Assembly: GCA_964217345.1 (NCBI GenBank)
Contig: CAXPJI010000008.1
Coordinates: forward strand, 1-24,000
DNA from: Euzebya sp.
GTDB lineage: Bacteria > Bacteroidota > Bacteroidia > Flavobacteriales > Flavobacteriaceae
Reading direction: 5' to 3'
Length of the DNA: 24,000 nucleotides
Position numbers and translations under genes: made by a program. Positions 4,604 to 20,974 of this stretch are shown one piece after another (the stretch's first letter is position 1; each line of letters opens with the position of its first letter). The notes beneath the pieces were generated by a model. That model worked only from the letters and a program-made list of their open reading frames with translations. It had not been told where the DNA came from and ran no database searches.

Positions 4604-4668
4604 GGTTTGAATTTTTCTTTTAAAGGTACAAGCAAAATTCAACCCTGTAGGTTAAAAAGCGGAGAAAA

Positions 4669-4684: not shown

Positions 4685-4689
4685 AAGGG

Positions 4690-5172: not shown

Positions 5173-5261
5173 AAACAAAAATTTATTACTGTAAAATTAA
5201 TATATTTTTTGATTGAATCAACTAAATCGCTGATTTTTAGGAAGAAAGAGTCTGTTTCAGA

Positions 5262-5804
5262 TTAGTTTTTAATGAAAAAAAGCTGAATTTCACATCGTAT
5301 TTGAGATTCGATAGGCTTAAACAAAAATCGAGGTAAACGGATTTTTGTCTGACTTAGGTCTACCGTAAAATCACCTCGAATTACATACTCCAATTCATTT
5401 TCATCGTAGTATAAATCGATGGATTGAGGGATTTTATAACCTGAAAGACCAAATTCACCTCTAACATTCAGTGTATCCTTTTTGTTTAACCTTACATCTT
5501 CACTGTAAAACGAAACTTCTGGGAATTCGATGGCATTAAAAATTCTTAACGCATTAGCGTCTCTATTGGTGCTTTTTGAGTCAAAATCAGCCAAATTTGC
5601 TTTAACAGCGATACGATTTGGTGTATTGTTATCGATTTCAATGACTCCTTTAGGCGAGTTATTCACTCCACTCCACTTATGTGCAGGATGCTTCGCATAA
5701 TAAACGATACTTGATTTTTCTGTATCTAACATCAACCGATTTTGGCTGAAAATGGGTCCAGTGAGAAAAAGAAAGGTGAAAAAAAGGGTTGATCTGAGTA
5801 TCAT
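5262..5804 (-). CDS. YceI-like domain protein with signal peptide, last gene of a 3-gene operon
   Basis: 180 aa with signal peptide MILRSTLFFTFLFLTGPIFSQ. YceI-type motifs are present: ADFDSKSTNRDANALRIFNAIEFPEVSFYS and VRGEFGLSGYK. The start overlaps the upstream stop (TAATG on the minus strand at 5802-5806). Confidence 0.7.
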   Translation of the reverse strand: MILRSTLFFTFLFLTGPIFSQNRLMLDTEKSSIVYYAKHPAHKWSGVNNSPKGVIEIDNNTPNRIAVKANLADFDSKSTNRDANALRIFNAIEFPEVSFYSEDVRLNKKDTLNVRGEFGLSGYKIPQSIDLYYDENELEYVIRGDFTVDLSQTKIRLPRFLFKPIESQIRCEIQLFFIKN

Positions 5805-6415
5805 TAATCTAATCTTAAAACTAGGGTGGCGGTTGCAAAAGCACCGACGGCCGTATACGCCGCGGCTCGGTGTAGGGATTTATCTCTCTCTTTGTAGTAT
5901 TGGGTAGCGATCATTGCAGAGAGGTGAACAGTGGCTAGCCATTTATGTGCTCTAGCCCCACTGATTCCTTCTTTTCGTGCACTGATTAGTGGTGGAGGGG
6001 AAAATAATGACAAAGCTGCTCCTGTGAAATAAGAAGCAGTGACAAAATTTCCTAGATCCTCATGAGTGTCCTTTAAATCATAATTACCATTGTAGAGTTT
6101 TCCACCAATAACTCCTTGCGCGATCATTCCTGCAAGAGTTATGTACCCTATCGCCTGGTGAGCAGTTAGCATGGATTTTCTCCATTGGAGCTCCTTAACT
6201 CTTTGTTCTCTCGAAAGTGGAGCGATACCCGTCTTTCGCATCAGACCCTTCTCACCCCAAAGTATTTTCTGCGTAAAGAGCATGCGCTCGGGAAGCAAAT
6301 CATCGGATAAACGGTTTTCTGAAGAATCCGTGGTATCGATTAGCCCAAATAGATCCTCTTGCCCAAAAGATAATTGAGCAGTTATGAGCATAAGAAGAAG
6401 TAATCGTCCTTTCAC
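5804..6415 (-). CDS. Hypothetical secreted/4-TM membrane protein rich in helix-associated histidines
   Basis: 203 aa with a GTG start at 6413-6415 that overlaps the Rieske gene stop by 1 nt; an alternative ATG is at 6391. It has a signal-like N-terminus (MKGRLLLLMLITAQLSFGQ) and four hydrophobic helices. His residues sit in TAHQAIG, DTHEDLG, RAHKWLATVHLS and SLHRAAA. I did not recognise a family. Confidence 0.55.
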   Translation of the reverse strand: MKGRLLLLMLITAQLSFGQEDLFGLIDTTDSSENRLSDDLLPERMLFTQKILWGEKGLMRKTGIAPLSREQRVKELQWRKSMLTAHQAIGYITLAGMIAQGVIGGKLYNGNYDLKDTHEDLGNFVTASYFTGAALSLFSPPPLISARKEGISGARAHKWLATVHLSAMIATQYYKERDKSLHRAAAYTAVGAFATATLVLRLD

Positions 6416-6948
6416 TATTTCTGAATCGTCAATGTTTGATCGGTAATCGATGTGGTATACGAGACGAGTTTACCGGTGGTATTGTTTGATCCACAGCTTA
6501 CCTCTTCACCTTGGTCGGTATTAAAAATATTTCCGTGAACTCCACAGGTAAAGGTATTGTCGTTATTGTAGGTCCAACTATTTTTAGCCCCATTGTGCGG
6601 ACAACAATTATCAAAAGCTAAGATTTGTGAATCTGAGACTCTTAATAAAAGTACTCCAGCATTAAGGATGTTTACGTTTCCACCCACCGTTTCGAGATCC
6701 TTAAAATTATCACTACTAAGGTCAACGGTTACCATATTTCCGTTTACGGTAAAGCCAGAAGTATTTGTATTTCCTTCACCTCCGGTATTGGTGTTATTGG
6801 AGCCATCACCTCCGATTACATTTACCGTACCTGTTCCTTCAGAGGAGCAGGCCTCAAGAAAAGACAAGCCAAACATTGCAAAAACTACTGTCGGACAGGC
6901 TTTCGTTAAGAAGTCTCTTCGCTTGTTTAAGTGTTTTTCTGTTTTCAT
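6415..6948 (-). CDS. Tat-exported Rieske [2Fe-2S] lipoprotein
   Basis: 177 aa with a twin-arginine motif (NKRRDFLTK), a hydrophobic stretch and the lipobox-like LEACSS. A Gly/Asn/Thr-rich linker follows. The Rieske motif is C-P-H-x16-C-G-V-H, read from CCPHNGAKNSWTYNNDNTFTCGVHG. Confidence 0.8.
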   Translation of the reverse strand: MKTEKHLNKRRDFLTKACPTVVFAMFGLSFLEACSSEGTGTVNVIGGDGSNNTNTGGEGNTNTSGFTVNGNMVTVDLSSDNFKDLETVGGNVNILNAGVLLLRVSDSQILAFDNCCPHNGAKNSWTYNNDNTFTCGVHGNIFNTDQGEEVSCGSNNTTGKLVSYTTSITDQTLTIQK

Positions 6949-6995: not shown

Positions 6996-8501
6996 CTACC
7001 AGATACCCTTCAGCCGCTCCTTCTCTAAACGGATCGCTTCATTCGTTGGATTATCGACGGCTATCTGATTGTAACCCTGGTCAGGGAACACCTGCAAGGT
7101 CATTAAAGTTTTTCCTCCTGCTACGAGAAGCTCGATGGAAGAAGCGTCTACATAGATTTCGAAGCTCAAAGATTCATCATTGAGGTAGCTAATGTCTGCA
7201 GTTAGCTCTTCAGAGGTAAACGCTTCACTAAACGAAACGTTTCCTGATTTAGAGCGATCAGCTACAATTTCACCATCGGCTCTATTAATGCTGAACACTA
7301 CTCGCTCGGTGTCATTCTGTAAAGCAAAACTAAATGCCTCAGCTGCTGTTTCTAAATAAATCCTAGATTGACTAGCACCCTCAAAAGGAATAAGTGATTG
7401 ACCTGAAGAGAGAGTCTCAACAGACGAGCCTTCTACTTTTAGACTGGCAGCTGCTTCTAAGATTTGACTTTGAAGACGGACACCGTCGGTTGCCTGAAAT
7501 AAAGACAGTTTTCTAGGCAAGGTCATCGAGCTTCTCCAAGCTTCTGTCGGAGTCTGCTGGGCATAGGCCCAGTTACTCATCCATCCGATAAACACCCTAG
7601 AATCATCGGGCACATCGTTGTAGGTGACTCCAGCATAGTTATCGGGCCCGTGATCTACCCAACGAATATCTTCCTGATCGGTTGAAAAAGTATAACCATC
7701 AAAATCGCCAATAAAATATTGAGTGGCACTACCTCCATTCGGGCCTCCCGGATTAATACTAATTAGTAGCACCCAATGCTTTTCGCCATTAAGCTCTAGC
7801 TCGAAAAGATCTGGGCATTCCCATACCCCTCCGTGGGCACCAACCCCTTGACCGAAGGTCGAACTGAGTTCCCAATCAATTAGGTTCGATGAACGAAAGA
7901 GTTGAAGGTGATCGCCGGCCACTAGGCTCATAATCCATGATGACGATGCTTCGTGCCAAAAAACCTTCGGGTCTCTAAAGTCTTTTACTCCTGGATTGGC
8001 AATGACTGGATTGTTTTGGTACATCGTCCAAGTATCGCCGTGGTAAAGACTGTAGGCGATTCCTTGAGTCTGATAGTCGATTTTACCTGCCTTCTCAGTC
8101 TCCATTTTGTGATAGGTAAAAATGGCAATGAGCGGCGGGTTTTCGGTCGTACCTAAACCTGAAGTATTCTCCTTATCGTAGACCGCGCTCCCTGAGAAAA
8201 TATATCCGTGCTCATCAGGAAACAATGCAATAGGTTTGTTTTCCCAATGAATCAAATCCTTACTTACCGCATGCCCCCAGTGCATAGGCCCCCAAACGAT
8301 ATCCTCAGGATAATACTGATAGAATAAATGGTAGGTTCCGTTTTCAAAGATTAATCCGTTCGGATCGTTCATCCATTTCTGTGGAGGAGAAAAATGATAT
8401 TGTAATCGGTAAGGCTCGTTATAATTCATAGTGGTCGTTGTGCTACATGCACCTAATAGCAGTGCAAAACTCGCGATAAAAACTTTTCTAATGCTCATCA
8501 T
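6996..8501 (-). CDS. Glycoside hydrolase family 32 (exo-fructosidase/levanase/invertase type), lipoprotein
   Basis: The catalytic GH32 motifs WMNDPNGL, FRDPKVFW and WECPDLF are present, plus a C-terminal beta-sandwich-sized region. Starting at the ATG at 8499-8501 gives MMSIRKVFIASFALLLGACS (signal plus lipobox). The track start at 8534 (also ATG) adds 11 aa. Confidence 0.88.
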   Translation of the reverse strand: MMSIRKVFIASFALLLGACSTTTTMNYNEPYRLQYHFSPPQKWMNDPNGLIFENGTYHLFYQYYPEDIVWGPMHWGHAVSKDLIHWENKPIALFPDEHGYIFSGSAVYDKENTSGLGTTENPPLIAIFTYHKMETEKAGKIDYQTQGIAYSLYHGDTWTMYQNNPVIANPGVKDFRDPKVFWHEASSSWIMSLVAGDHLQLFRSSNLIDWELSSTFGQGVGAHGGVWECPDLFELELNGEKHWVLLISINPGGPNGGSATQYFIGDFDGYTFSTDQEDIRWVDHGPDNYAGVTYNDVPDDSRVFIGWMSNWAYAQQTPTEAWRSSMTLPRKLSLFQATDGVRLQSQILEAAASLKVEGSSVETLSSGQSLIPFEGASQSRIYLETAAEAFSFALQNDTERVVFSINRADGEIVADRSKSGNVSFSEAFTSEELTADISYLNDESLSFEIYVDASSIELLVAGGKTLMTLQVFPDQGYNQIAVDNPTNEAIRLEKERLKGIW

Positions 8502-8561
8502 TGGGCTATTTTGGTTGAAAATATACAAATTCATTCACCCCGCCTCTCCAATCCTACAAAA

Positions 8562-9188
8562 ATGACCGATACACAGGCACTTACCATCTTTTGTAAAACA
8601 CCTAAGAAAGGGTTTGTAAAAACCCGTCTTGCTGCCAGTGTGGGGGATCAGAAGGCTTTAGAGGTCTACCTTAACCTTTTAAACATTACAGATGAAGAGA
8701 CCAGACCCTTCTCATCTTCAAGACATTTATTCTTAGCGAGTGCCTTAGAAGATTCTGTAGAAAAAATGCGATCTACTCTTCAACAGCAAGGCCTATTTAC
8801 CGATCCTAAAACTAACTTTGCAATTCAGCAAGGAGAAGATCTTGGTCAGCGAATGATTGCAGCATTCAAAAAGCTCTTCCAAAACCATCAATCGGTGGTC
8901 CTTATTGGCTGTGATCTTCCAGATTTAACCTCTGCACTAATCTCTAATGCTTTCGATGCACTCCAGAGTAATGATGTAGTAATAGGCCCTAGTTGTGATG
9001 GTGGCTATTATCTCATTGGCTTGAACAAGGAGACCCCCGACCTATTTAAAGAGATTTCTTGGAGCACGGAAAAGGTTTTAAATCAAACAATGGAAAAGGC
9101 TGAAAGACTTTCGCTAAAAGTTCAACTCTTAGATCAATTGAGAGACATTGACACCCTAGAAGACCTGCATTTCAGCAAACTTAAATAG
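8562..9188 (+). CDS. DUF2064 / TIGR04282-like (CofC/MobA-like GT-A fold) transferase, the family associated with arsenosugar/radical-SAM clusters
   Basis: ATG at 8562 (the track start 8511 adds 17 unlikely aa). Recognised motifs are LTIFCKTPKKGFVKTRLA, QQGEDLGQRM, LIGCDLPDL, VIGPSCDGGYYLIGL and ISWSTEKV, matching my memory of the DUF2064 consensus (AK.P.PG.VKTRL, QG.GDLG.RM, G.D.P, GPA.DGGYYL.G, W.T..V). Confidence 0.65.
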   Translation: MTDTQALTIFCKTPKKGFVKTRLAASVGDQKALEVYLNLLNITDEETRPFSSSRHLFLASALEDSVEKMRSTLQQQGLFTDPKTNFAIQQGEDLGQRMIAAFKKLFQNHQSVVLIGCDLPDLTSALISNAFDALQSNDVVIGPSCDGGYYLIGLNKETPDLFKEISWSTEKVLNQTMEKAERLSLKVQLLDQLRDIDTLEDLHFSKLK

Positions 9189-9236
9189 GTTAGTAAAGGT
9201 TTAGTATCCGCCCAAAATAGTCGTAATTTAGAGGCT

Positions 9237-10046
9237 ATGTTAACAGAAGATGTTTTAAAAGAATCTCTAGCATTCTTGCGTTCCAAAGGATTCGGAGATG
9301 CGGAGGTCGGTATCATTTTAGGCACAGGCCTTGGTCAGTTTGTCGATGAAATAACCATTGAGGCGGTAGCCCATTATCACCATATTCCTTACTTCCCCAT
9401 ATCCACAGTTGAATACCACTCAGGAAAACTCCTTTATGGTACACTTCAGGGTAAAAAGGTGGTCGTAATGCAAGGCAGGTTTCACCTCTATGAAGGCTAT
9501 GACTTTGTAGAACTGACGTACCCGATACGTGTGATGCACGCTCTAGGAATTAATAAACTTTTGGTTTCGAATGCTGCAGGAGCCATTAACCCTGACTACA
9601 GAAAAGGGGATTTATTACTTATAGACGACCATATCAACCTACAAGGAGGATCACCACTTGCCTTCTCGAACGTGAGTGAATTCGGGCCCCGATTTGTAGA
9701 TATGATTTGTCCGTATGATGCAGAACTTTCAAAAATAGTAGAAGAAAAGGCAAGCAGTGTTGGAATAAAACTTCACCGTGGGGTTTATGCAGCCGTTATA
9801 GGGCCTCAACTCGAAACTCGTGCCGAGTATCGAATGCTGAGAATCCTAGGTGCCGATGCGGTAGGTATGAGCACGGTACCCGAGGTTATTGTGGCCAACC
9901 AACTCAACCTTCCTGTAATTGCGATTTCAGTGATTACCGATGAATGTGACCCTGATCATCTGCAGCCCATAAACGTGCCAGAAATCATGGAAATCGCAAA
10001 GGCCAGCGAACCAAAACTTATCCAACTTTTTAAATCAGTTATTTAA
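9237..10046 (+). CDS. Trimeric-type purine nucleoside phosphorylase (PunA/PNP-MTAP family) with Asp at the Asn243-equivalent position
   Basis: 269 aa with motifs ILGTGLG, EYHSG, QGRFHLYEG, VSNAAGA, GPQLETRAEYR and LGADAVGMSTVPEVIVA. SVITDECD aligns with human SLITNKV and MTAP ATDYDCW. The stop overlaps the next start (TAATG 10044-10048). Confidence 0.85.
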   Translation: MLTEDVLKESLAFLRSKGFGDAEVGIILGTGLGQFVDEITIEAVAHYHHIPYFPISTVEYHSGKLLYGTLQGKKVVVMQGRFHLYEGYDFVELTYPIRVMHALGINKLLVSNAAGAINPDYRKGDLLLIDDHINLQGGSPLAFSNVSEFGPRFVDMICPYDAELSKIVEEKASSVGIKLHRGVYAAVIGPQLETRAEYRMLRILGADAVGMSTVPEVIVANQLNLPVIAISVITDECDPDHLQPINVPEIMEIAKASEPKLIQLFKSVI

Positions 10047-11011
10047 TGAGTTATCTAGACGCCACTCATGATTTATACACCAAAGCTGCTGAAACCCCTG
10101 AGATAGGCTTGTGCTGCACCACTAGCCCGATATGGCAGTTTCCTGGCTTGTCGATTCCTAAAAGGATGCAAGAAATGAACTACGGATGCGGAACAACAGT
10201 TTCTGCTTCTGATTTGGTAGGCAATCCTAAAATACTCTACGTCGGAGTAGGCGGAGCTATGGAGCTGCTTCAGTTCGCGTATTTCTCTAGAGAAAAGGGG
10301 AATATTATCGGGGTAGACTCCGTCGACAGAATGCTTCAAGCGGCAGAAGAGAATCTTTTAGTGGCTGAGAAAGAAAATGAATGGTTCGAACGTGATTTTA
10401 TCGAACTCAAAAAAGGCGATGCGCTAAACTTGCCTATTGAAGATGAATCTGTCGATATTGCTGCACAAAATTGCCTCTTTAATATTTTCAAAGCAGAAGA
10501 TCTCAAAAAGGCCATTTCAGAAATGTATCGAGTATTAAAGCCTCACGGTAGACTCGTTATGAGTGATCCTATTTGTGAACAACCGATGTCTGAAACACTT
10601 CGAAACGATGACCGCTTACGAGCAGAGTGTTTGAGCGGAGCTATTCCACTAAAAGACTACCTCAAGGCACTTACTGAAGCTGGCTTTGGTACTATCGAGG
10701 TGAGGGCAAAGCACTCGTATCGCATTCTTGATCCTAAACATTATTCGACCGACCAGCTGATACATATTGAATCGGTTGAAGTGTGTGCGATTAAAGATCC
10801 GATGCCCCCAGACGGGCCGTGCATTTTTACGGGTAAAACCGCCATTTATTTCGGAGAAGAGGAGTACTTTGATGATCATAAAGGCCACCTTCTTTTAAAG
10901 CACCAACCACTCGCAGTCTGCGATAAAACGGCCGCTCAACTGGGTGGTTTAAATGCCGACATCCACATCAGCGAGTCAACCTATCATTACAGAGGAGGAG
11001 GCTGCTGTTAA
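10046..11011 (+). CDS. arsM: ArsM-like As(III) S-adenosylmethionine methyltransferase (three-domain type, Cys-rich, C-terminal CC)
   Basis: 321 aa, collinear by eye with my memory of Cyanidioschyzon ArsM. Matches are YGCG (C48), IIGVDSVD, VDIAAQNCLFN (C143), LKPHGRLVMSD, RAECLSGA (C195), N-terminal GLCCTT (C23/C24), a C-terminal domain, and the tail GGGCC. Cys spacings (24/25, 95, 52) are close to CmArsM C44-C72-C174-C224 (28, 102, 50). Confidence 0.65.
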   Translation: MSYLDATHDLYTKAAETPEIGLCCTTSPIWQFPGLSIPKRMQEMNYGCGTTVSASDLVGNPKILYVGVGGAMELLQFAYFSREKGNIIGVDSVDRMLQAAEENLLVAEKENEWFERDFIELKKGDALNLPIEDESVDIAAQNCLFNIFKAEDLKKAISEMYRVLKPHGRLVMSDPICEQPMSETLRNDDRLRAECLSGAIPLKDYLKALTEAGFGTIEVRAKHSYRILDPKHYSTDQLIHIESVEVCAIKDPMPPDGPCIFTGKTAIYFGEEEYFDDHKGHLLLKHQPLAVCDKTAAQLGGLNADIHISESTYHYRGGGCC

Positions 11012-12312
11012 TGGATGAGAAAATCGTCATTATCGGCAATGGTATTGCAGGAAGTACTCTAGCACTTGAGTTAGCTGAGAAAGGAACTGCTTCAGTGACC
11101 CTGATCTCTGATGAAAGCCCTTATTTCTTCTCTAGAACTGCCCTGATGTATGTCTATATGGGGCATTTAACCAAAGAACAACTCGAACCCGTTTCTAGAG
11201 AAAGTTGGGCCCAATCTCCCATTCAGCGAGTCAAGGCCCGGGTTTTATCGATTCGTCCAGAAGACAAAGAGCTATCCTTTCAATCCAGTGAAGGGGACGT
11301 AAAGCAACTCTCCTATGATCGACTAGTGATTGCGACAGGATCAAAACCTGCCTTTTACGATTGGAAAGGGCAAGAAGCTGAAGGAGTCTTAGGGCTTTAC
11401 CATTTAAGCGATTTAGAAAAACTAGAAAAATGGGCTCCGAATGCTTCTGCTTGTCCCGAAGCTGTTGTGATTGGGGGCGGATTAATTGGAATCGAGCTCT
11501 GCGAAATGCTACTCAGTCGCCAAATAAAAACAACCTTAATTATTAGAGAAAGCTTTTTCTGGTCAAGCCACTTGCCAGAATCTGATGCGCAGTTTGTAGA
11601 AAAGCACATCCAATCGCATCACTTAAATCTCATAAAAGAAGATGAGTTACTAGAAATAAGTACAGATGAGACCGGTCGCGTCTCTTCGATTCAAACCAAA
11701 AAAGGCGAGACGATTTCGTGTAATTTAGTCGGAATTACTACCGGTGTGCGTCCGAACATTGAGTTTTTAAAAACGAGCAGATTAGAATTAGACAAAGGGA
11801 TACTCGTCGATGAATATCTCAAAACCTCAGATCCCTCGATTTATGCCATTGGCGACTGTGCTCAGGTTAGAAATCCACTTTCGAATCGTTCCGCAATCGA
11901 ACCCGTATGGTATTCGGGTAAATTGATGGGGGAAGCCCTTGCTCAGACTTTTTCCGGCCAACCGGCCCCATATAACCCCGGTATATGGTACAACTCAGCA
12001 AAGTTTTTCGATCTCGAATACCAGACCTATGGCAAAGTCCACCCAAAAGCATCGCAGCCGGAGAATGAACAACAATTTCATTGGGAGGCCGATGAGAAAG
12101 CGATGACCTTCGCCTATGATAAAACGTCCGGTGCATTTTTAGGAATCAACAGCTTTGGCATTCGTCTGAATCATCGTATAGTCAGCAGCTGGATTGAAAC
12201 GGCTATTACTATTCAAGAAGTAATTGATCGTTTAGAAGAAGCCCATTTTGATCCAGAATTTAGTCATCGATACTACAACCAGATTAAACATGCATTCGTA
12301 CAGAACCAATAA
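11011..12312 (+). CDS. FAD/NAD(P)-dependent pyridine-nucleotide oxidoreductase (ferredoxin/rubredoxin-reductase-like, no redox CxxC)
   Basis: 433 aa with the FAD fold KIVIIGNGIAGSTLALELAEKG, a second dinucleotide fold AVVIGGGLIGIELCEML, and IYAIGDCAQV. The start is fused to the upstream stop (TAATG 11009-11013). Confidence 0.8.
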   Translation: MDEKIVIIGNGIAGSTLALELAEKGTASVTLISDESPYFFSRTALMYVYMGHLTKEQLEPVSRESWAQSPIQRVKARVLSIRPEDKELSFQSSEGDVKQLSYDRLVIATGSKPAFYDWKGQEAEGVLGLYHLSDLEKLEKWAPNASACPEAVVIGGGLIGIELCEMLLSRQIKTTLIIRESFFWSSHLPESDAQFVEKHIQSHHLNLIKEDELLEISTDETGRVSSIQTKKGETISCNLVGITTGVRPNIEFLKTSRLELDKGILVDEYLKTSDPSIYAIGDCAQVRNPLSNRSAIEPVWYSGKLMGEALAQTFSGQPAPYNPGIWYNSAKFFDLEYQTYGKVHPKASQPENEQQFHWEADEKAMTFAYDKTSGAFLGINSFGIRLNHRIVSSWIETAITIQEVIDRLEEAHFDPEFSHRYYNQIKHAFVQNQ

Positions 12313-13729
12313 CATACAAAAGGTATTTACCTATTTGGGGCTATCTGGCCTAGCGGTTTTAATCCTTGCGGGATTTACCGCCTCTTTCCTCAAATCAGCA
12401 GGTCTTTTTCTCGGTCTAGGACTTATCAGCCTTGGAGTTATCGGCTATACCTTTTCTAGCTATTCAGGCTTACCCCAGGGTATTAAAAACAACGGTGTTT
12501 GGTACCGATCCCTAACTTCAAGAGGTATTGTCGCTTGGGTAGTCGGAGTGATTTTAACCGCGTTTTATATAATACTCTACTTTTATCCTGAACACTTAGA
12601 GGGACTTATTCGGTTATTCGACCCTTTAAGCGAGGGGTTGAGTGGAAAAAAGGCTTCGCAGTGGTTCGTATACGGGGTGCTTTATACCCTCGCTATCGTA
12701 CTCTTTGGAATTAAGTTTATTGTAAAATACAAGCACTCCAAATACCAAAAGTACCGAACCTACAGCGTCATCTTTTTTCAAACGATTTTCGCGTTTCTGA
12801 TACCCGAGATGATGGCTCGACTGAATGGGGACCTGCCCTATTACGATTTGAAAAGCATTTGGCCTTTGAATTATTACCTTTTCGACGGCTACCAATTAGA
12901 TGGATTTCTACAAAACGGCAGCCTAGGAACTGCACTTTTGATCTTTGGTATTCTTAGTACGCTAATTATTACACCTATTCTGACCTATAAATTTGGTAAA
13001 CGATGGTACTGCTCCTGGGTTTGTGGATGCGGTGGTCTTGCTGAGACTGCAGGAGATCCCTTTAGACAATTGAGCGATAAAAGTCTTCGAGCATGGAAAC
13101 TCGAAAGATGGATGATTCATCTTATACTGGTCTGGGTATTCATTAGTACCGTTGGGGTGGTTTACAGTTATCTTCTGCAAGCTCCTGATTCTTATTTGTT
13201 AGGACCTAAAACATTCCTTCTTTCAGTAAGTTTTGTTTTTAGCCTCGTGGTGGGATTAATTTTATGGAAGCGCAGGGATTGGCTAGCGAAAGATGCCCAA
13301 TCTTCAGCTATTGCAATCAGCTCAGTAATTGTTCTGCTTTTAGGGTTTTTCTTTTTCAGTGAGAGTGATCGAGTACTGTTTATACCCTCATATCAGATTC
13401 GATCTGCCTACGGATTCTTCATCGGCAGTATCTTTTCTGGGGTAATTGGAACGGGGTTTTATCCGATACTAGGAAACAGAGTTTGGTGTCGATTCGGATG
13501 TCCAATGGCCGCAATTTTGGGAATTCAGCAAAAGCTATTCTCCAAATTTAGGATCAGTACCAATGGTGGACAGTGTATCTCTTGCGGAAATTGCTCCGCT
13601 TACTGCGAAATGGGAATAGACGTGCGTGCCTACGCCCAACGTGAAGAACCTATAAAAAGAGCCTCTTGTGTAGGATGCGGAATCTGCTCAGCTGTTTGTC
13701 CGAGAGGGGTGCTTCGACTAGAATCATGA
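12290..13729 (+). CDS. Polytopic membrane polyferredoxin (NapH/MauN-like, two CX3C motifs plus two 4Fe-4S motifs)
   Basis: The ATG at 12290 overlaps the upstream gene by 23 nt; the track start 12248 is less likely. There are many hydrophobic helices. Motifs are WYCSWVCGCGG and VWCRFGCPMA, with C-terminal CISCGNCSAYC and CVGCGICSAVCP. Confidence 0.75.
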   Translation: MHSYRTNNIQKVFTYLGLSGLAVLILAGFTASFLKSAGLFLGLGLISLGVIGYTFSSYSGLPQGIKNNGVWYRSLTSRGIVAWVVGVILTAFYIILYFYPEHLEGLIRLFDPLSEGLSGKKASQWFVYGVLYTLAIVLFGIKFIVKYKHSKYQKYRTYSVIFFQTIFAFLIPEMMARLNGDLPYYDLKSIWPLNYYLFDGYQLDGFLQNGSLGTALLIFGILSTLIITPILTYKFGKRWYCSWVCGCGGLAETAGDPFRQLSDKSLRAWKLERWMIHLILVWVFISTVGVVYSYLLQAPDSYLLGPKTFLLSVSFVFSLVVGLILWKRRDWLAKDAQSSAIAISSVIVLLLGFFFFSESDRVLFIPSYQIRSAYGFFIGSIFSGVIGTGFYPILGNRVWCRFGCPMAAILGIQQKLFSKFRISTNGGQCISCGNCSAYCEMGIDVRAYAQREEPIKRASCVGCGICSAVCPRGVLRLES

Positions 13730-14412
13730 TTTATGTAATTATCCCTGCACTAAACGAAGAGGAGGCAATTGCTAGGGTTATTGCAGATATACCTGAATCA
13801 GTCACCGAAGTAGTAGTGATTGATAATGGTTCAACAGATCGAACTTCAGAGGTTGCAAGAAAGGCCGGAGCTACCGTTCTTAAAGAATCTCGAGCGGGCT
13901 ATGGTTATGCCTGTCTCAAAGGAATCACCTATTTGAAAGACCAACAACAAAATGGGGATATCATTGTCTTCTTAGATGGTGATTATTCGGATTACCCCGA
14001 AGAACTAACCTCTCTAGTGGCTCCTATCGAGAAGGACAATTATGATTTAGTGATCGGTACTCGAAATAATCCTTTACTACAAAAAGGAGCCCTCACTCCA
14101 CAACAACGATTCGGCAATGCGCTTGCCACTCGATTAATGGCCCTATTGTATGGCGGAAAGTATACCGATCTCGGTCCCTTTAGAGCCATAAGCTTCGATG
14201 CCTTAGATCGACTAAAAATGCAGGATAAAACTTACGGATGGACGGTTGAAATGCAACTCAAAGCGCTAAAACATCGATTAAGGTATACCGAAGTACCCGT
14301 TAACTATCGTCCACGTATCGGTGAATCCAAGGTGTCTGGCACCCTTAAAGGAACGATCATGGCCGGTTACAAAATACTCGGTTGGATATTTATTTACGCA
14401 TTCAAGAAATGA
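13726..14412 (+). CDS. Small family-2 glycosyltransferase (polyprenyl-phosphate glycosyltransferase / TIGR04283-like)
   Basis: The ATG at 13726 forms an ATGA overlap with the upstream stop. It is 228 aa with IYVIIPALNEEEAI, VVIDNGSTDRT and FLDGDYSD (DxD). This is the GT-A fold of the DPM1/Ppm1/GtrB type, without long C-terminal TM helices. Confidence 0.75.
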   Translation: MIYVIIPALNEEEAIARVIADIPESVTEVVVIDNGSTDRTSEVARKAGATVLKESRAGYGYACLKGITYLKDQQQNGDIIVFLDGDYSDYPEELTSLVAPIEKDNYDLVIGTRNNPLLQKGALTPQQRFGNALATRLMALLYGGKYTDLGPFRAISFDALDRLKMQDKTYGWTVEMQLKALKHRLRYTEVPVNYRPRIGESKVSGTLKGTIMAGYKILGWIFIYAFKK

Positions 14413-15833
14413 GCGGAATAGTTCTCACTTGGCAAATCGCCCTAGGCTTATGCGTTTTGATGCTCAGTATCTATTCCTTTTACCAAGGGTACTTAGCTAT
14501 CCTATCCTATAGAACCCAATCAAAAGAGGAGGATACAAAATTAGGAGTATTCCCAACGGTAGTTCTTCAATTACCCCTTTTTAATGAAGGCAATACGATT
14601 GATGCAACTTTTAAGTCGATCCTTGAATTAACTTATCCTAAAGAACAGTTACAAATTCAAGTTCTTGACGATTCAACTGATGAAGGATCACGTGCATTAG
14701 CCCAACTATGGGTAGAACGATTGCATACTTATGGCTTCAAGGCAGAATACTTGTGGCGAGCTAATCGAATTGAATTTAAAGCTGGTGCGCTTCGAGAAGG
14801 TTTGGAAAAAACAGACTCCGAATTCGTAGCCATTTTAGATGCTGATTTTAGGGGCACACCGGGTTGGTTAGAAAAGGGACTTACGCCATTTAATGACCCT
14901 AAGGTAGGTATCGTCCAATTCAGATGGGGCTACTTCAACTTAGATGAAAGTTGGTTTACTCAAATGCAGGCATTACCCTTAGAGGTTCACTTTAGAAACG
15001 AACATCATGCACGTTATAACCATCGGTATTTAAGTAATTTTAATGGGACGGCTGGGATTCTTAGAAGATCAGCTATAGAAAATTCTGGTGGATGGAGTGG
15101 TGACACTTTAACCGAGGACATTGATTTGTCGTATCGTATTCAGTTAAAAAAATACCGATTGGTATATTATAACGAAAATTCTTTAGATTCTGAGCTACCT
15201 CATACCGCGAACGCCTATAGAACACAACAAAGAAGATGGAATAAAGGTGGCGCTGAAACACTCAAGAAGTTGTTTGTATCTATTCTTAAATCAGATTTAA
15301 GTTTTTCGCAAAGACTCTTCGCATTATTTCACTTATCAGGATCTAGTTTTTATCTCGCATCTTTAGGTCTTTTCCTTTTAAGTTTGTTTGGCTTACCTCT
15401 TAAGATCTCAGGCCTTTTAAACGAAAACGCCCTCTTTTGGACCTTCATTCAGGTAGCCCTAAGCGTCAACACGCTGATTCTCTTTACCTGTTTTTACCAG
15501 GCATATTCCAAATCTACATTCGGCTTTAATAGCCTAAGATTTACCCGCTTATTCATCACCTATATTTTATACACCACCGGGCTGGGTTGGCATCATGGTA
15601 AAGCAGTGCTTGAAGGTCTTATCGGGATGAAATCACCTTTTGAAAGAACTCCAAAAAAAGGAAGCACAACTTCAAAAAAGCAACGGCCACCCTATATCGA
15701 ATTACTCATTTCCCTTCTGTTCTTTGCAGCAGTCCTAGTTGATCTAAGAATTGGATTTTGGCCTATTTTAGGAATCCATCTCGTCGGTGGAATAGGCTAT
15801 CTTTTAAGTTTTTCGCACGCATGCAAAGCCTAA
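14409..15833 (+). CDS. Membrane family-2 glycosyltransferase of the CslA / glucosyl-diacylglycerol-synthase / cellulose-synthase-like type
   Basis: The ATG at 14409 forms an ATGA overlap with the upstream stop. It has an N-terminal TM helix and the D,D,D,QxxRW signature (VLQLPLFNE, QVLDDSTDE, AILDADF, LTEDIDLSYR, QQRRWNKG). Several C-terminal TM helices follow. Confidence 0.75.
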   Translation: MSGIVLTWQIALGLCVLMLSIYSFYQGYLAILSYRTQSKEEDTKLGVFPTVVLQLPLFNEGNTIDATFKSILELTYPKEQLQIQVLDDSTDEGSRALAQLWVERLHTYGFKAEYLWRANRIEFKAGALREGLEKTDSEFVAILDADFRGTPGWLEKGLTPFNDPKVGIVQFRWGYFNLDESWFTQMQALPLEVHFRNEHHARYNHRYLSNFNGTAGILRRSAIENSGGWSGDTLTEDIDLSYRIQLKKYRLVYYNENSLDSELPHTANAYRTQQRRWNKGGAETLKKLFVSILKSDLSFSQRLFALFHLSGSSFYLASLGLFLLSLFGLPLKISGLLNENALFWTFIQVALSVNTLILFTCFYQAYSKSTFGFNSLRFTRLFITYILYTTGLGWHHGKAVLEGLIGMKSPFERTPKKGSTTSKKQRPPYIELLISLLFFAAVLVDLRIGFWPILGIHLVGGIGYLLSFSHACKA

Positions 15834-17101
15834 GACGAAATAGCATCTATGTTATTCTCCCACTAACCCTTTTAGGGTATTATCTCCTAGCCCAGGTAGA
15901 ACGATCAGAAATCTCAATGCTGATTGGCCTATTTAGCCTTCTTTTTACCAGCTATATCGGTTTACTGAAATTGAAAGCTACGCACCTAGGGTGGATCCTT
16001 ATTGGACTCTGTTTTCGATTGGCCTTTATCGGCTCCACACCACTTCTGTCACAGGACTATTTTCGATTCATTTGGGACGGAAGCCTATTATCCAATGGGA
16101 TCAACCCTTACCTCTATCTTCCCGATGAACTCATCGAAATGTTTAGTCAGTGGGAATATTTGCACTCTGGAATGGGCCCAATGAGTGCCGGACACTACAC
16201 GAACTATCCGATGATTAATCAGCTGCTATTTACACTCGGAGTTCTTTCAACAAAGCCGATACTGACCTACCGACTTTTAATCATACTAGCTGATCTCATC
16301 ACCTTTAAGTTATTGACTAAACTAAGCTCGCAGACCTGGGGTTTAACCTATTGGCTGTCGCCAATGGTTATTCTAGAAGGTGTAGGCAACCTACATTTCG
16401 AACCGGTGATGGTTGCCTTCCTAGTTTTAGGCCTTTATCTTTTTAAGCAAGGTGTACACCTTAGGTCTTCTATTGCATTAGCAGCATCCGTACTTTTAAA
16501 ACTGATACCACTTATGTTCGCGCCTTTGCTTTTGAAAGTAGTAAAGCAAAAGCAACTGAAAATTATGGTGTTTGGATTCATTGTAACCCTAGCCTTATTC
16601 AGCACTCCTTTTCTTGACCCATGGTTTTTTGCCACCTATAGTGAGAGTGTGGGTTTATGGTTTTCGAATTTTGAATTCAACGCGGGTATCTACCGAATCA
16701 TCAAAGAAGTTGGTACATTATTTGGAGTTCAAGATTGGCAAATGATTCGATTTTACGGGAAGGCGCATTCACTTGCCATTATCATTCTTGCTTTAAAATT
16801 TACCTGGGGATGTGATCGTTTTTCAAAGGTGCTTGACAAAAGCTACTTGCTTCTACTGATCTATCTTCTGACTGCGCCAACGATTCATCCATGGTATCTC
16901 ATAACCCTACTAGCGCTCGGGGCAATTAGTAAACACCCATCCGCTATTCTATGGTCGTTTACCATTATTATAAGCTATGTAGCTTATCAAATGAACCCTA
17001 TCGAATTACCATTATGGCTGGTGGCTCTTCAGTTCATTCCCGTGCTAATATCACTGACTAGCTTCTCTTTCCGATCATTTTTAGAAAAGAAACTTCTTTA
17101 G
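15821..17101 (+). CDS. Polytopic membrane protein, GT-C-like (DUF2029/PIG-M-like) putative lipid-linked-sugar glycosyltransferase
   Basis: The ATG at 15821 overlaps the upstream gene by 13 nt. It is 426 aa, almost entirely hydrophobic helices. The first-loop acidic/aromatic motif SQDYFRFIWDGSLLSNGINPY resembles the D-containing loop motif of GT-C mannosyltransferase-like proteins. This is the weakest assignment in the operon. Confidence 0.45.
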   Translation: MQSLRRNSIYVILPLTLLGYYLLAQVERSEISMLIGLFSLLFTSYIGLLKLKATHLGWILIGLCFRLAFIGSTPLLSQDYFRFIWDGSLLSNGINPYLYLPDELIEMFSQWEYLHSGMGPMSAGHYTNYPMINQLLFTLGVLSTKPILTYRLLIILADLITFKLLTKLSSQTWGLTYWLSPMVILEGVGNLHFEPVMVAFLVLGLYLFKQGVHLRSSIALAASVLLKLIPLMFAPLLLKVVKQKQLKIMVFGFIVTLALFSTPFLDPWFFATYSESVGLWFSNFEFNAGIYRIIKEVGTLFGVQDWQMIRFYGKAHSLAIIILALKFTWGCDRFSKVLDKSYLLLLIYLLTAPTIHPWYLITLLALGAISKHPSAILWSFTIIISYVAYQMNPIELPLWLVALQFIPVLISLTSFSFRSFLEKKLL

Positions 17102-17975
17102 TGTCAAGAGCTCTCCACTGCCCTCGAGGAAGGTCTTTTTTAGTGAGTCCCGCGAACATTACTCGATCGAGCTTTGCAACCTCATAACCCAAGTGTTCAA
17201 AAATTCTTCGAACGATACGGTTTCGTCCTGAGTGAATTTCAAGACCCACTTCACGCTTCGTTGCACCAGCGATATAGGAAACAGCATCAACACTTATCGG
17301 GCCATCTTCTAATTCAATTCCTTTCTCGATTTGTTGTAAATCGCTCACCTTTAGTGCACGATCTAATACCACATGGTAGATCTTTCTAACGGCATAGCGC
17401 GGATGAGTAAGCTTTGCAGCCAACTCCCCGTCGTTAGTAAAAAGCAACAGACCCGTCGTATTACGATCTAATCGACCTACAGGCAAAAGTCGACTCTTGC
17501 TAGCATTACTAATTAGATCCATGACGGTTTTACGACCTTTATCGTCTTCGGTAGTAGTAAGAAAATTCTTGGGTTTATTCAGGAGTATGTACTCCATCTT
17601 TTCTGAAGTCAATAGTCGGCCATCGAATTTAACTGAGTCACCAGGCATTACCTTGTACCCCATTTCGCTAACCACCTTACCATTTACCTCAACGCTACCA
17701 GCGGTAATGAAGGTATCCGCCTCACGTCTCGAACAGATTCCTGCGTGAGCAATGAAACGGTTCAGTCGCATGCTTCCATCATCAACCTTCTTCGGCTCAC
17801 TATTTGTCGGTTTTACAGGGCGCTTATTGAAAGGTCGTTGACCTCCCCTTTGCTGACCTCCTCTTTGTTGGCCTTCTCGTTTTGGTCCTTCAGTGGGTCG
17901 TTGTTTCCCTGATCTTTGACCTCCTGTGTTTTTCTTTGGTTTACGGTTGTTCAATGTGACTCGTTTAGAGCGCAA
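17058..17975 (-). CDS. rluB: 23S rRNA pseudouridine synthase, RsuA/RluB family, with Arg/Gly/Gln-rich N-terminal extension
   Basis: It has an S4 domain (MRLNRFIAHAGICSRREADTFITAGSVEVNGK) and the catalytic motif VGRLDRNTTGLLLFTNDGE. The only start giving the full ORF is the TTG at 17973-17975; the next Met is residue 69 at the S4 domain. Confidence 0.85.
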   Translation of the reverse strand: MRSKRVTLNNRKPKKNTGGQRSGKQRPTEGPKREGQQRGGQQRGGQRPFNKRPVKPTNSEPKKVDDGSMRLNRFIAHAGICSRREADTFITAGSVEVNGKVVSEMGYKVMPGDSVKFDGRLLTSEKMEYILLNKPKNFLTTTEDDKGRKTVMDLISNASKSRLLPVGRLDRNTTGLLLFTNDGELAAKLTHPRYAVRKIYHVVLDRALKVSDLQQIEKGIELEDGPISVDAVSYIAGATKREVGLEIHSGRNRIVRRIFEHLGYEVAKLDRVMFAGLTKKDLPRGQWRALDTKEVSFLKMIGKRS

Positions 17976-18870
17976 AAATAAACGCTTTTAATTGATGTAA
18001 TCGATTCAAATCGAACAATAAAATGCTCAGGGTGCCTAATAACACCCAAAATTTCAATAACAAGCGCATTTTTAGATAGCTTATACCCATAAAACTGAAA
18101 ATCAATTCGATAGCTACAAAAACTAGAACTGCCACTGAGGTGCTAAAGTAAAGTTGCATCTGGCCGAGGTCAGACCGTAGGCTTAAACCAAGGCCTAAGA
18201 AGGCAAGAGCAAAAAGCATCCCGGCTGTAATTTTTCTGGTTTTTGACTCGCCTAATTGAATGGGTAGCGAATGTAAACCGCTAGAGAGATCTCCCTTCAG
18301 ATTGTTCAAATCTTTTAATTGAACGAGTACCCAAAGAAGAAGAAATAAAAAGCTAGCGAAGAGTAAAATGCGAGGTTCAAAATGCCTGTAATAAAGGAAT
18401 AGAGCAATAATAGGGCTAACAGCAAGGAAAGCGCTGAGTACAGATCCCCAGATAAAGAGGGAACGAATTCTATGAGAATATAGCCAAATGGTCGTAATGT
18501 ATCCGACGAAAAAAAGCGCTGCAAGAAGAGAGACCTTAAGCGCCATTAAAAAGGCAATAAGATTAAGAAGCAAATACCCTCGCATGAGGGAGGATAATGA
18601 CCACTGACCGTCAATGACTGTTTTCACCGGGCGATTAATAAGGTCTTTGGGATGATCGTAATATTGATTGATTAGATATCCGGCCGTAACCACAAAGAAG
18701 CTTGAACCAACGAGTAAATGAAGCTCTAGGTTTCGCAAGAGATCCGCTACTGGATAAGTCGATCCGAGAATAAAAATGGCGGATAAATATTGGGCTAAGA
18801 CAACCAAAAGTGCATTTTGGAGTCGAGTAACACTAAAAAACGTAAGTAGATTTCTTTTAACGCTAGGCAT
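17965..18870 (-). CDS. UbiA-family membrane prenyltransferase (DGGGP-synthase-like)
   Basis: 301 aa and highly hydrophobic. The first motif is NQYYDHPKDLINRP (N-x3-D-x3-D-x2-N-x-P). The second is LKDLNNLKGDLSSGLHSLPIQLG. It sits next to mevalonate pathway genes. Confidence 0.75.
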   Translation of the reverse strand: MPSVKRNLLTFFSVTRLQNALLVVLAQYLSAIFILGSTYPVADLLRNLELHLLVGSSFFVVTAGYLINQYYDHPKDLINRPVKTVIDGQWSLSSLMRGYLLLNLIAFLMALKVSLLAALFFVGYITTIWLYSHRIRSLFIWGSVLSAFLAVSPIIALFLYYRHFEPRILLFASFLFLLLWVLVQLKDLNNLKGDLSSGLHSLPIQLGESKTRKITAGMLFALAFLGLGLSLRSDLGQMQLYFSTSVAVLVFVAIELIFSFMGISYLKMRLLLKFWVLLGTLSILLFDLNRLHQLKAFIFAL

Positions 18871-18872
18871 AC

Positions 18873-19832
18873 CTAAAAGGTATAAACTACCTCTAATTGG
18901 TGACCATCTAACGCCTTTTTAGTAGCCTCTAAATCTTGAGTGAATCCCAAAAAATAGCCTCCACCGCCAGAGCCACAGAGTTTAAGGTAATAAGTATCGG
19001 TTTCTAACCCCTTCTGCCAAATATCGTGGAAGTTTGAAGGAATCATTGGTTTAAAGTGATCGAAGACCACTCCTGATAACTTTCGAAGATCGCTAAAAAG
19101 AGAGCGTATATTACCGCTTAGGAAATGATCAATACACGCATCAGTATATTGAACAAATTGCTCTCTCATGACCTCTTCGAACTGCTTGTTCTTTAGGTTC
19201 TCCATAAAGAGTTGAACCATAGGTGCCGTCTCTCCGGTTATACCGCTGTCTAATAGAAACACTGCTCCCTTACCCGCCTGGTTTTGCGAAGGTATTGGAG
19301 TAGATTCTACATGATCTTTGGCGTGTATTAAAATAGGTAGACTTAGATAACTATTGAGCGGATCAAGTCCCGATGAAGTCCCATGAAAATGAGATTCCAT
19401 AATCGCAAATTGTCCTTTGAGCGTAAGCAGTTTGTCTCGGGTTAATGAACCTAAGACCGAAACCTTCTCCCCAGCATATCGGTCATAAATCGCAGCAACA
19501 ATCGCTCCGCTACTCCCGACGCCATATCCCATAGGAATCGAACTATCGAAATACATGCCTTTCTCTAAATCGGCATCTAGACGCTCAAAATCAAACGAGA
19601 CATCAAGGCACTGCTCAGCCACCTGGCTCTTCAGGTAGGCAGCATAATTCTTTAGATGTGTATTTGATGAAGAAGGTATTTCAGAGGAGGTATTCTCGGG
19701 AAAACGCAAGGCTCCTTTGAACGCATTAAACGGTATAGCAAGGCCTTTAGAATCTTTAATGATCCCGTACTCTCCGAAAAGAAGAATCTTAGCGTAAAAT
19801 AATGGGCCTTTCATTTTGTTTAATTTTTTCAT
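18873..19832 (-). CDS. GHMP-family kinase, mevalonate-kinase-like (phosphomevalonate kinase not excluded)
   Basis: The ATG at 19830-19832 is preferred; the track start 19847 is a TTG. Motifs are AKILLFGEYGII, the GHMP motif PMGYGVGSSGAIVAAI, and LKLCGSGGGGYFLGF. It is adjacent to the decarboxylase. Confidence 0.7.
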   Translation of the reverse strand: MKKLNKMKGPLFYAKILLFGEYGIIKDSKGLAIPFNAFKGALRFPENTSSEIPSSSNTHLKNYAAYLKSQVAEQCLDVSFDFERLDADLEKGMYFDSSIPMGYGVGSSGAIVAAIYDRYAGEKVSVLGSLTRDKLLTLKGQFAIMESHFHGTSSGLDPLNSYLSLPILIHAKDHVESTPIPSQNQAGKGAVFLLDSGITGETAPMVQLFMENLKNKQFEEVMREQFVQYTDACIDHFLSGNIRSLFSDLRKLSGVVFDHFKPMIPSNFHDIWQKGLETDTYYLKLCGSGGGGYFLGFTQDLEATKKALDGHQLEVVYTF

Positions 19833-19847
19833 CTCAAAGGTAAACAA

Positions 19848-20906: not shown

Positions 20907-20974
20907 AACTTCCCCAGTAAAGGGCAAAGATAACAGAATGTTATTGTATCTTTTTGGAGCTAAATGGGTTATTA

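Follow-up and report, generated by a model that had tools for sequence, protein, structure and literature searches.

A probable arsenosugar gene cluster, reduced and fused into a single operon, in an uncultured Flavobacteriaceae lineage

Arsenosugars were described decades ago, and to our knowledge only two steps of their biosynthesis have enzymes, ArsM and ArsS. The arsM–arsS pathway of Synechocystis sp. PCC 6803 was reportedly described by Xue et al. in 2017 and 2019. ArsM provides dimethylarsenite, from which ArsS makes DDMAA (5'-deoxy-5'-dimethylarsinoyl-adenosine); the accessible literature assigns no enzyme after DDMAA, as the initial annotation of the DNA studied here had stated. Already known are the ArsM–ArsS pair itself and the families TIGR0428x, TIGR04169 and NF045521, which are named in NCBIfam. 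We analysed a 24,000-nucleotide stretch of contig CAXPJI010000008.1 (assembly GCA_964217345.1; positions 1 to 24,000, hereafter the window) from an uncultured Flavobacteriaceae lineage, in which an arsenosugar-type arsM stands within a compact run of eight genes. Our preferred reading, to which we assign a probability of roughly 0.55, is that this operon is the most reduced form of an arsenosugar supercluster of Flavobacteriia, that ArsS acts in trans and that the products of all eight genes take part in an arsenic-sugar pathway. The eight genes are as follows.

8562–9188, + strand: gene 1, TIGR04282/DUF2064 protein of 208 amino acids (aa), with a CofC/MobA-like nucleotidyl- or glycosyl-transferase fold
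9237–10046, + strand: gene 2, trimeric-type purine nucleoside phosphorylase (PNP), 269 aa
10046–11011, + strand: gene 3, arsenosugar-type As(III) S-adenosylmethionine (SAM) methyltransferase ArsM, 321 aa
11011–12312, + strand: gene 4, NAD(P)H/FAD-dependent oxidoreductase of ferredoxin/rubredoxin-reductase type, 433 aa
12290–13729, + strand: gene 5, integral-membrane polyferredoxin with NapH/CcoG-like organisation, 479 aa
13726–14412, + strand: gene 6, small family 2 glycosyltransferase (GT2) resembling polyprenyl-phosphate sugar synthases (AglJ/DPM1/ArnC), 228 aa
14409–15833, + strand: gene 7, membrane GT2 with a processive-synthase signature, 474 aa
15821–17101, + strand: gene 8, polytopic membrane protein, possibly GT-C-like (MptA/MptB mannosyltransferase family), 426 aa

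All eight coding sequences start with ATG and end in one terminal stop codon. They lie on the same strand, and their extents and every junction previously reported for them were reproduced exactly by the list of open reading frames (ORFs) and a script. A 48-nt gap (9189–9236) follows gene 1, after which the genes are only fused or overlapping: TAATG at 10044–10048 joins PNP to ArsM and at 11009–11013 holds both the stop codon of ArsM and the start codon of the reductase gene, the reductase and polyferredoxin genes overlap by 23 nt, ATGA overlaps occur at 13726–13729 and 14409–14412, and genes 7 and 8 overlap by 13 nt. Gene calls on four further contigs of the same uncultured lineage gave an identical eight-gene layout. 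The ratio of nonsynonymous to synonymous substitution rates (dN/dS) was 0.03–0.40 for each of the eight genes when compared with close relatives (L008, L009 and L004), and we therefore regard them as maintained genes and not chance ORFs. Judged from sequence, they are a genuine operon of this lineage.

To assign the genes to families, we used NCBIfam and Pfam profiles with curated cutoffs together with sequence matches to the PDB. Gene 1 scored 195.5 bits against TIGR04282 (cutoff 134) over profile positions 1–189 of 189 and 110 bits against Pfam DUF2064, with a weaker match to CofC; its closest structure is PDB 3CGX (E 2e-30), and its dN/dS is 0.21–0.40 relative to L008 and L009. Gene 3 scored 551.3 bits against NF038099 (AsSugarArsM; cutoff 400) over positions 1–321 of 321. 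When ArsM was aligned to CmArsM (4KW7/4FR0), its YGCG, QNC and ECLSGA motifs fell on Cys72, Cys174 and Cys224. The protein is 71–77% identical among Flavobacteriaceae genera, and the dN/dS of gene 3 is 0.07. Of the three assignments on which the initial annotation rested, those of gene 1 to DUF2064/TIGR04282 and of gene 3 to the ArsM family hold, and that of the small GT2 to TIGR04283 fails, as described below. The idea that gene 3 is a divergent outlier has to be dropped, as it is a typical full-length NF038099 member that retains the arsenic-binding cysteines.

The ArsM family as a whole carries a conserved C-terminal GGCC and an N-terminal CC pair, which adds two pairs of vicinal cysteines to those already known in ArsM. 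Two distant members, both just above the NF038099 cutoff, are short of one catalytic cysteine, with Pro at Cys72 in P0123 and Gly at Cys174 in P0127. In another protein, P0121 (673 aa; NF038099 465 bits), a metallophosphoesterase domain is naturally fused to an arsenosugar-type ArsM; a link between this domain and the phosphoesterase gene of the Flavobacteriaceae clusters was considered and rejected, as the two have no significant similarity.

Gene 2 encodes a trimeric (low-molecular-mass) PNP, with 338 bits against NF006054 (cutoff 218), PDB 4LNA as its closest structure (E 1e-87) and a dN/dS of 0.03–0.04. Its assignment as a 5'-methylthioadenosine phosphorylase (MTAP) was rejected, because it scored 99.6 bits against TIGR01694 (cutoff 274.85) and the MTAP models were not reached. 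In human PNP, Asn243 makes the enzyme selective for 6-oxopurines, the N243D substitution allows adenosine to be accepted, and the 5'-hydroxyl is bound by His257. Aligned to a human PNP sequence that was entered by hand, the window PNP keeps the phosphate and ribose contacts (equivalents of Arg84, His86, Tyr88, Glu201, Met219, Ser220 and Thr242) and has Asp235 at the position of human Asn243, Val247 at that of His257 and Leu192 at that of Phe200. The same pattern, with Asp at the Asn243 position, Ile or Val at His257 and Leu at Phe200, was found in 115 of 115 cluster PNPs. As predicted from this alignment, the pocket fits an adenine nucleoside that has a non-hydroxyl 5' group. By analogy with MTAP, an adenine-accepting pocket with a hydrophobic 5' side is what a DDMAA phosphorylase would require, and the cluster PNP is a candidate for this enzyme. 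The earlier proposal that the PNP removes adenine thus gains support at the level of the base pocket, as well as from the recurrence of PNP with ArsM described below. One caveat is that 4LNA, the closest solved PNP, likewise has Asp at the Asn243 position. Alternatively, the cluster PNP may simply be the housekeeping PNP of these bacteria, or its arsenic-related role may be arsenolysis: a review (PMC12608789, citing its references 92 and 93) reports that arsenate is reduced in vitro when PNP catalyses arsenolysis.

To place the operon among its relatives, we mapped 80 loci from a genome scan and 80 from a metagenome scan, using tblastn and hidden Markov models (HMMs) built from the loci, and retained 123 loci of Flavobacteriia type; frequencies were counted only where the flank sufficed. 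The names of upstream and core families were verified on an Olleya locus (L049) and those of accessory families by Pfam. The full supercluster begins with a peroxidase-like gene (TIGR04169), ArsS (TIGR04167), a rhodanese (NF045521), TIGR04282, PNP, ArsM, DUF547 and TIGR04283. It continues with variable genes on the opposite strand (metallophosphoesterase, amidase, outer-membrane protein and GH113) and often a second DUF547, and ends with the FAD reductase, polyferredoxin, small GT2, processive GT2 and GT-C genes. TIGR04282 was present at 93 of 95 testable loci and PNP at 94 of 95, and TIGR04282–PNP–ArsM is the near-invariant core of the cluster. Upstream of it, ArsS was found at 60, the peroxidase-like gene at 59 and the rhodanese at 70 of the 95 loci. 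TIGR04283 and any DUF547 gene were found at 78 and 91 of 103 loci, respectively, and in most relatives DUF547 and TIGR04283 lie on the downstream side of the core. Within 10 kb downstream of ArsM, the FAD reductase was present at 61 of 90 testable loci, with the polyferredoxin after it at 53; the small GT2 was present at 43, and at least one of FAD reductase and small GT2 at 69. HMM mapping of the window found no peroxidase-like, ArsS, rhodanese, DUF547, TIGR04283, GH113 or phosphoesterase gene. No surveyed locus is more reduced or more compact than the window, where the distance from ArsM to the reductase is 0 (median over the loci, 4.4 kb). With the intervening genes gone in the window lineage, the redox pair is joined to ArsM without a break. 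These results show that the arsenic-sugar cluster is widespread in marine Flavobacteriaceae and that the window holds a stripped-down, compacted version of it.

The redox and glycosyltransferase modules also lie near the arsenic genes in other arrangements. Metagenome locus L139 has ArsS and the peroxidase-like gene in reverse orientation, then TIGR04282, PNP, ArsM, DUF547, FAD reductase, polyferredoxin, GT2, GT2 and GT-C, followed by reversed RluB, UbiA and mevalonate kinase genes as in the window. At L115, GT2, GT2 and GT-C come immediately after ArsM, with no redox pair between; at L118 and L130 the two GT2 genes come immediately after TIGR04283; and at L158 and L162 the modules stand in a different order or orientation. 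Paralogues of DUF547 are found next to TIGR04283 as well as next to the FAD reductase. These architectures are not all derivable from one another by simple inheritance, and the adjacency survives several independent rearrangements, which bears out the original grouping of the redox pair and three glycosyltransferases with the arsenic genes. On balance, genome context favours a functional link between these modules and the arsenic genes.

Among the accessory genes of the cluster, those of DUF547, which fall into two subtypes, occur most often (91/103 loci; for example, L049 11051–11932 and L139 10975–11679), and a representative has a signal-peptide-like N terminus and a conserved NCASYSCP (C-x4-C) motif. 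A recurrent neighbour was at one point taken for a desaturase; Pfam shows that it is the second DUF547 subtype. A minority of loci do carry a true FA_hydroxylase gene.

Where, then, is ArsS? In the window, neither ArsS nor another radical-SAM gene was detected. As originally reported, the CxxxCxxC motif is absent: a scan of stop-free segments of at least 60 aa in all six frames gave zero matches. The ArsS HMM had no match at E ≤ 1, and NCBIfam scans of the flanking window genes gave no ArsS. Thirty-five of the surveyed loci have no ArsS in the fetched flank. Most of them belong to the Muricauda/Flagellimonas/Maribacter/Arenibacter/Muriicola/Robiginitalea clade (hereafter the Muricauda clade), which is also the clade nearest to the window's ArsM. 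A search with an Autumnicola ArsS sequence listed Christiangramia, Gillisia and Zunongwangia among its best 120 matches and nothing on the Muricauda clade; a second search, with the ArsS of the metagenome-assembled genome L054, the ArsS-bearing locus closest to that clade, returned the clade's ArsS. Muriicola marianensis carries both on one 2,389,011-bp contig, with the peroxidase-like–ArsS pair at 1.726 Mb and the ArsS-less cluster at 2.216–2.237 Mb, ~0.5 Mb apart. In a second related genome (3.72 Mb), ArsM lies at 0.11–0.13 Mb and ArsS at 0.61–0.63 Mb, again ~0.5 Mb apart. ArsS is also present in Flagellimonas allohymeniacidonis and in Muricauda sp. SCSIO 64092. Because ArsS lies ~0.5 Mb away in two related genomes, its absence from the window is probably a matter of gene order, and the parsimonious reading would be that ArsS is encoded elsewhere in the window's genome. 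The earlier remark that the operon has no ArsS does not extend beyond the locus, given that 60 of 95 related loci have ArsS upstream and that these two genomes carry the displaced pair.

In the wider set, an 8-kb insertion at L046 pushes ArsS from the core to the edge of the locus, and ArsS has gone from the locus several times independently, in the Muricauda clade, in Lacinutrix (L051), at L073 and in Tenacibaculum (L070 and L075). When loci with and without ArsS were compared, dN/dS was 0.17 versus 0.12 for TIGR04282, 0.085 versus 0.042 for PNP, 0.033 versus 0.028 for ArsM and 0.12 versus 0.11 for TIGR04283. Constraint on TIGR04282, PNP and TIGR04283 is thus unchanged without ArsS at the locus, as expected if the pathway is intact. 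Three proteins considered as the ArsS of the window lineage (P0417, P0483 and P0492), along with cluster memberships, were rejected, as all come from other lineages with canonical clusters.

The relocated peroxidase-like–ArsS pair has a conserved context of its own in the Muricauda clade (L174 7368–11056, L175 6382–11089 and L176 7662–11056). An FNR-like flavoprotein gene (FAD_binding_6/NAD_binding_1/2Fe-2S) and a patatin gene lie upstream, and two of the three loci have a TetR-type gene after the pair. F. allohymeniacidonis has, in addition, a second DUF2064 gene beside the relocated pair.

The five remaining genes of the operon were assigned less specifically. Gene 4 matches Pfam Pyr_redox_2 (167 bits) and reaches no equivalog, the best NCBIfam models (CoA-disulfide reductase, NorW and ferredoxin reductases) being far under their cutoffs. 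Gene 5 has ~9 transmembrane (TM)-like segments, CX3CGC and CX3CP motifs and two CX2CX2CX3C motifs of the [4Fe-4S] type; it matches Pfam Fer4_5/Fer4_21, with Fer4_18 below threshold, and its dN/dS is 0.07–0.09. Its description as a NapH-like polyferredoxin stands for the C-terminal ferredoxin part, which aligns to profile positions 168–254 only, and fails for NapH as a whole (38.8 bits; cutoff 213).

The initial annotation had read the small GT2, gene 6, as a member of the ArsS-associated family TIGR04283. This reading is not borne out: gene 6 scored 45 bits against a cutoff of 182, over its N-terminal half only, and 30.8 bits with our own 88-member HMM, whereas a true member in L049 scored 236.9 bits. 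A separate, true TIGR04283 gene is present at 78 of 103 related loci and usually accompanies the gene-6-type GT2 where the flank reaches. Gene 6 scored higher, though still short of the cutoffs, with the models for AglJ (127 bits) and for dolichyl-phosphate hexose transferase (77 bits), and its PDB matches were GpgS, ArnC and DPMS. Gene 7, with motifs DD87, DAD144, DID237 and QQRRW273 and ~6 TM-like segments, has the features of a processive GT2. It matches Pfam Glyco_trans_2_3 and Glyco_transf_21 and, in the PDB, BcsA (E 1.5e-14); against the CelA and PgaC models of NCBIfam it was below cutoff and reached no equivalog. For gene 8, which has ~10 TM-like segments, a precomputed match to PF26314 (MptA_B_family) exists on an identical product; our own Pfam scans were empty, and the NCBIfam MptB score was 21.4 bits (cutoff 40).

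These assignments suggest how the pathway might run. ArsM would make dimethylarsenite, and ArsS, presumably encoded elsewhere as in the two Muricauda-clade genomes, would adenosylate it to DDMAA. The PNP, with Asp in its base pocket and a hydrophobic 5' pocket, would then phosphorolyse off adenine and leave arsenoribose-1-phosphate, which the TIGR04282 protein, with its CofC/MobA-like fold, would activate or transfer. We infer this chain, from ArsM through ArsS in trans and PNP phosphorolysis to TIGR04282, from the gene content and pocket residues described above. The roles of the other two modules are speculative. Electrons from NAD(P)H might pass through the reductase and the membrane polyferredoxin to a step at the membrane, where they might hold arsenicals in the trivalent state or serve a partner enzyme. 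The three glycosyltransferases (DPM1-like GT2, processive GT2 and GT-C-like protein) might assemble a glycoconjugate of the membrane or envelope, perhaps with the arsenic sugar attached.

Several observations weigh against the preferred reading. Every surveyed locus was anchored on ArsM, so arsenic-free occurrences of the redox and glycosyltransferase modules lie outside the scope of the survey. Neither module lies within 10 kb in about a quarter of the loci, and neither is nearby at any of 38 loci with a distant ArsM (50–60% identity), where ArsS is directly adjacent or within a few kb in 22 and the rest have ArsM alone, many on short contigs. No radical-SAM gene was found in the contig extension from ~9 kb left to ~10 kb right of the window (~19 kb), and no ArsS of the window's own lineage was found in the window, in this ~19-kb flank or among the homologues in the matches listed, a list too short to reach so divergent a lineage. 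Because the window is without rhodanese, DUF547 and TIGR04283, it offers no dedicated arsenosugar glycosyltransferase to the pathway as drawn. Being redox-neutral, the ArsS reaction does not require a dedicated electron supply; it is at least as plausible that the redox pair keeps dimethylarsenic trivalent or serves another membrane enzyme as that it supplies ArsS. The PNP residue mapping, in turn, depends on the human sequence entered by hand. Finally, opposite-strand genes without an arsenic link (GH113, amidase and outer-membrane protein) usually lie between the modules, and the processive GT2 with a neighbouring GH113 gene, of a beta-mannanase family, resembles an ordinary polysaccharide synthase set.

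These last two points favour an alternative that we consider somewhat unlikely, in which deletion joined two unrelated units, the arsenic trio and an ordinary envelope polysaccharide or glycolipid module, whose proximity is inherited synteny without shared chemistry. The D,D,D,QxxRW signature of the membrane GT2 and its usual GH113 neighbour, standing to it as BcsZ does to BcsA, fit such a module; the FAD reductase–polyferredoxin pair and the glycosyltransferase trio occur apart at L115, L072 and L076; and the distant ArsM–ArsS loci do without both. Synteny alone is weak evidence, because the GH32 gene upstream of the operon is equally syntenic across the Muricauda clade. However, the adjacency outlasts at least five rearrangements, including spacer-free contact at L115, at L118/L130, at L139 and in the window, DUF547 beside both TIGR04283 and the FAD reductase ties the two halves together, and in the window the ArsM stop and reductase start share one TAATG.

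Two other explanations take the absence of ArsS at face value. It is distinctly unlikely, in our view, that the genome is truly ArsS-less and that the trio works alone, with PNP arsenolysis (ribose-1-arsenate and thiol reduction) yielding As(III), or with algal arsenic nucleosides or sugars being processed, and with the redox pair reducing arsenicals. Such a scheme would agree with the absence of ArsS, peroxidase-like, rhodanese, DUF547 and TIGR04283 genes from the window and of radical-SAM genes from ~19 kb of extra flank, with the repeated independent departure of ArsS from the locus, with an aquaglyceroporin gene 5 kb downstream and with the in vitro arsenate reduction by PNP arsenolysis reported in PMC12608789. 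Yet both ArsS-less-locus genomes that were checked genome-wide carry ArsS ~0.5 Mb away, constraint on TIGR04282, PNP and TIGR04283 is the same where ArsS is off-locus, and simple methylation gives TIGR04282 no obvious role. A narrower version, that the window lineage, together with some Flagellimonas whose locus is reduced in the same way (CP157804.1 is one with such a locus), truly lost ArsS, TIGR04283, DUF547 and rhodanese and yet kept a constrained trio welded to redox and glycosyltransferase genes for an ArsS-independent route, strikes us as a long shot. Were it correct, arsenic would enter by PNP arsenolysis or by salvage of algal arsenic nucleosides or sugars, and the product would be a methylated-arsenic envelope glycoconjugate. 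The suggestion in the initial annotation that ArsM itself bypasses ArsS, forming the As–C5' bond by adenosyl instead of methyl transfer, is highly improbable. Its sole point is that ArsS is absent from the window, whereas gene 3 is a typical, full-length NF038099 member, 71–77% identical to orthologues that stand beside ArsS, keeps the methyltransferase fold and the equivalents of CmArsM Cys72, Cys174 and Cys224, and has the same dN/dS with or without ArsS nearby.

Both ends of the operon are closely packed. At the 3' end, the GT-C gene overlaps a convergent RluB pseudouridine synthase gene by 44 nt (17058–17101), which leaves no space for a terminator between them. At the 5' end, the annotated start of the GH32 gene (minus strand; 8534) is only 27 nt from the first ATG of the operon. 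The lipoprotein signal peptide of the GH32 protein starts 11–12 codons inside the annotated ORF (MMSIRKVFIASFALLLGAC), so the true start is probably near 8498–8501, and the divergent region (8498–8561) is probably ~60 nt long and would have to hold both promoters. A scan of the window with sigma-70 promoter and terminator models, sigma-70 being unfit for Bacteroidota, found fewer promoter-like sites than in shuffled sequences.

Farther out, genes for glycerol metabolism surround the operon (20954–23948 and 609–2162), encoding GlpK, an aquaglyceroporin of the MIP family, a glycerophosphodiester phosphodiesterase and GlpD. Aquaglyceroporin-type channels conduct arsenite, and the usual arsenosugar aglycones are glycerol and glycerophosphate. 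These glycerol genes were not among the mapping queries, and at the loci for which gene lists were inspected they did not recur next to the cluster. Downstream on the minus strand (17965–20984) lie genes for a prenyltransferase of the UbiA type (which weakly matches archaeal geranylgeranylglycerol-phosphate transferases), for mevalonate kinase and for diphosphomevalonate decarboxylase; RluB, UbiA and mevalonate kinase genes likewise follow the compact operon of L139 (18087–20736). On the other side (4049–6948, minus strand), a short LOV/PAS protein gene lies between two YceI-family genes, adjoined by the gene for a lipoprotein that has a Rieske domain and a linker of low complexity rich in Gly, Asn and Thr. 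This lipoprotein scored 22 bits against the arsenite oxidase small subunit (cutoff 95.65), a resemblance that probably reflects no more than the generic Rieske fold.

The survey provides testable candidates for the later steps of arsenosugar synthesis, namely the PNP, the CofC-like TIGR04282 protein, TIGR04283, DUF547 and the rhodanese; the redox pair and the lipid-linked glycosylation module are possibly further ones. In the accessible literature, none of PNP, DUF547, the redox pair and the glycosyltransferase trio is mentioned in an arsenosugar context, and our searches of the literature on TIGR04282 and TIGR04283, on a part for PNP in making arsenosugars, and on arsenosugars in Muricauda, Maribacter and Zobellia, found nothing relevant. 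Our findings place arsenosugar machinery in abundant marine heterotrophs and make marine Flavobacteriia possible producers of arsenosugar lipids; ocean surveys have found arsenosugar phospholipids, including ether-lipid forms, 'suggesting a bacterial source'. As a reduced form, the window lends itself poorly to such tests, and the canonical clusters of cultured Olleya, Winogradskyella, Christiangramia and Kordia are better starting points.

Compared with enzymes and modules known from elsewhere, the operon departs from each model in some respect. Like MTAP, the window PNP has the PNP_UDP_1 superfamily fold, and it would phosphorolyse a 5'-deoxy-5'-substituted adenosine to adenine and a sugar-1-phosphate; its Asp at the base position and hydrophobic 5' residue are compatible with this reaction, although by sequence the enzyme is a PNP. 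The AglJ/DPMS/ArnC-like GT2 stands two genes upstream of a polytopic protein with a precomputed MptA_B_family match, an arrangement reminiscent of the donor-maker and donor-user pairs DPM1/Ppm1 with MptA/MptB and ArnC with ArnT. By contrast with those pairs, the window matches are below equivalog cutoffs and a processive GT2 lies between the two genes. Gene 5 shares with NapH and CcoG its multiple TM helices, CX3CP-type motifs, two C-terminal [4Fe-4S] motifs and Fer4_5 match; it differs in falling short of the NapH cutoff and in having an NAD(P)H/FAD reductase as its partner, not NapG or a cbb3 oxidase system.

At the level of the whole cluster, the window shares with the cyanobacterial arsM–arsS system an ArsM of the same NF038099 subfamily, distant metagenomic members of which adjoin ArsS. 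It differs in being without ArsS and in having TIGR04282, PNP, the redox pair and three glycosyltransferases; the distant ArsM–ArsS pairs are accompanied by none of these additions. Olleya sp. R77988 (NZ_CP138988.1; L049) has the TIGR04169 peroxidase-like gene, ArsS, the NF045521 rhodanese, TIGR04282, PNP, ArsM, DUF547 and TIGR04283. Its TIGR04282–PNP–ArsM core has the same order and orientation as in the window, with 73% identity for ArsM and 62% for PNP, whereas five of its eight genes (peroxidase-like, ArsS, rhodanese, DUF547 and TIGR04283) are not in the window, and the redox and glycosyltransferase modules that are fused on directly in the window are not within 10 kb. Metagenome contig Ga0181604_10000002 (L139) matches the window in gene order, compaction and the downstream reversed RluB, UbiA and mevalonate kinase genes. 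It differs in having DUF547 between ArsM and the reductase and divergent ArsS and peroxidase-like genes upstream, where the window has GH32, and its proteins are just 34–70% identical to those of the window. Set beside these systems, the window holds a reduced, fused arsenosugar cluster, and its missing ArsS is most likely a matter of gene order.

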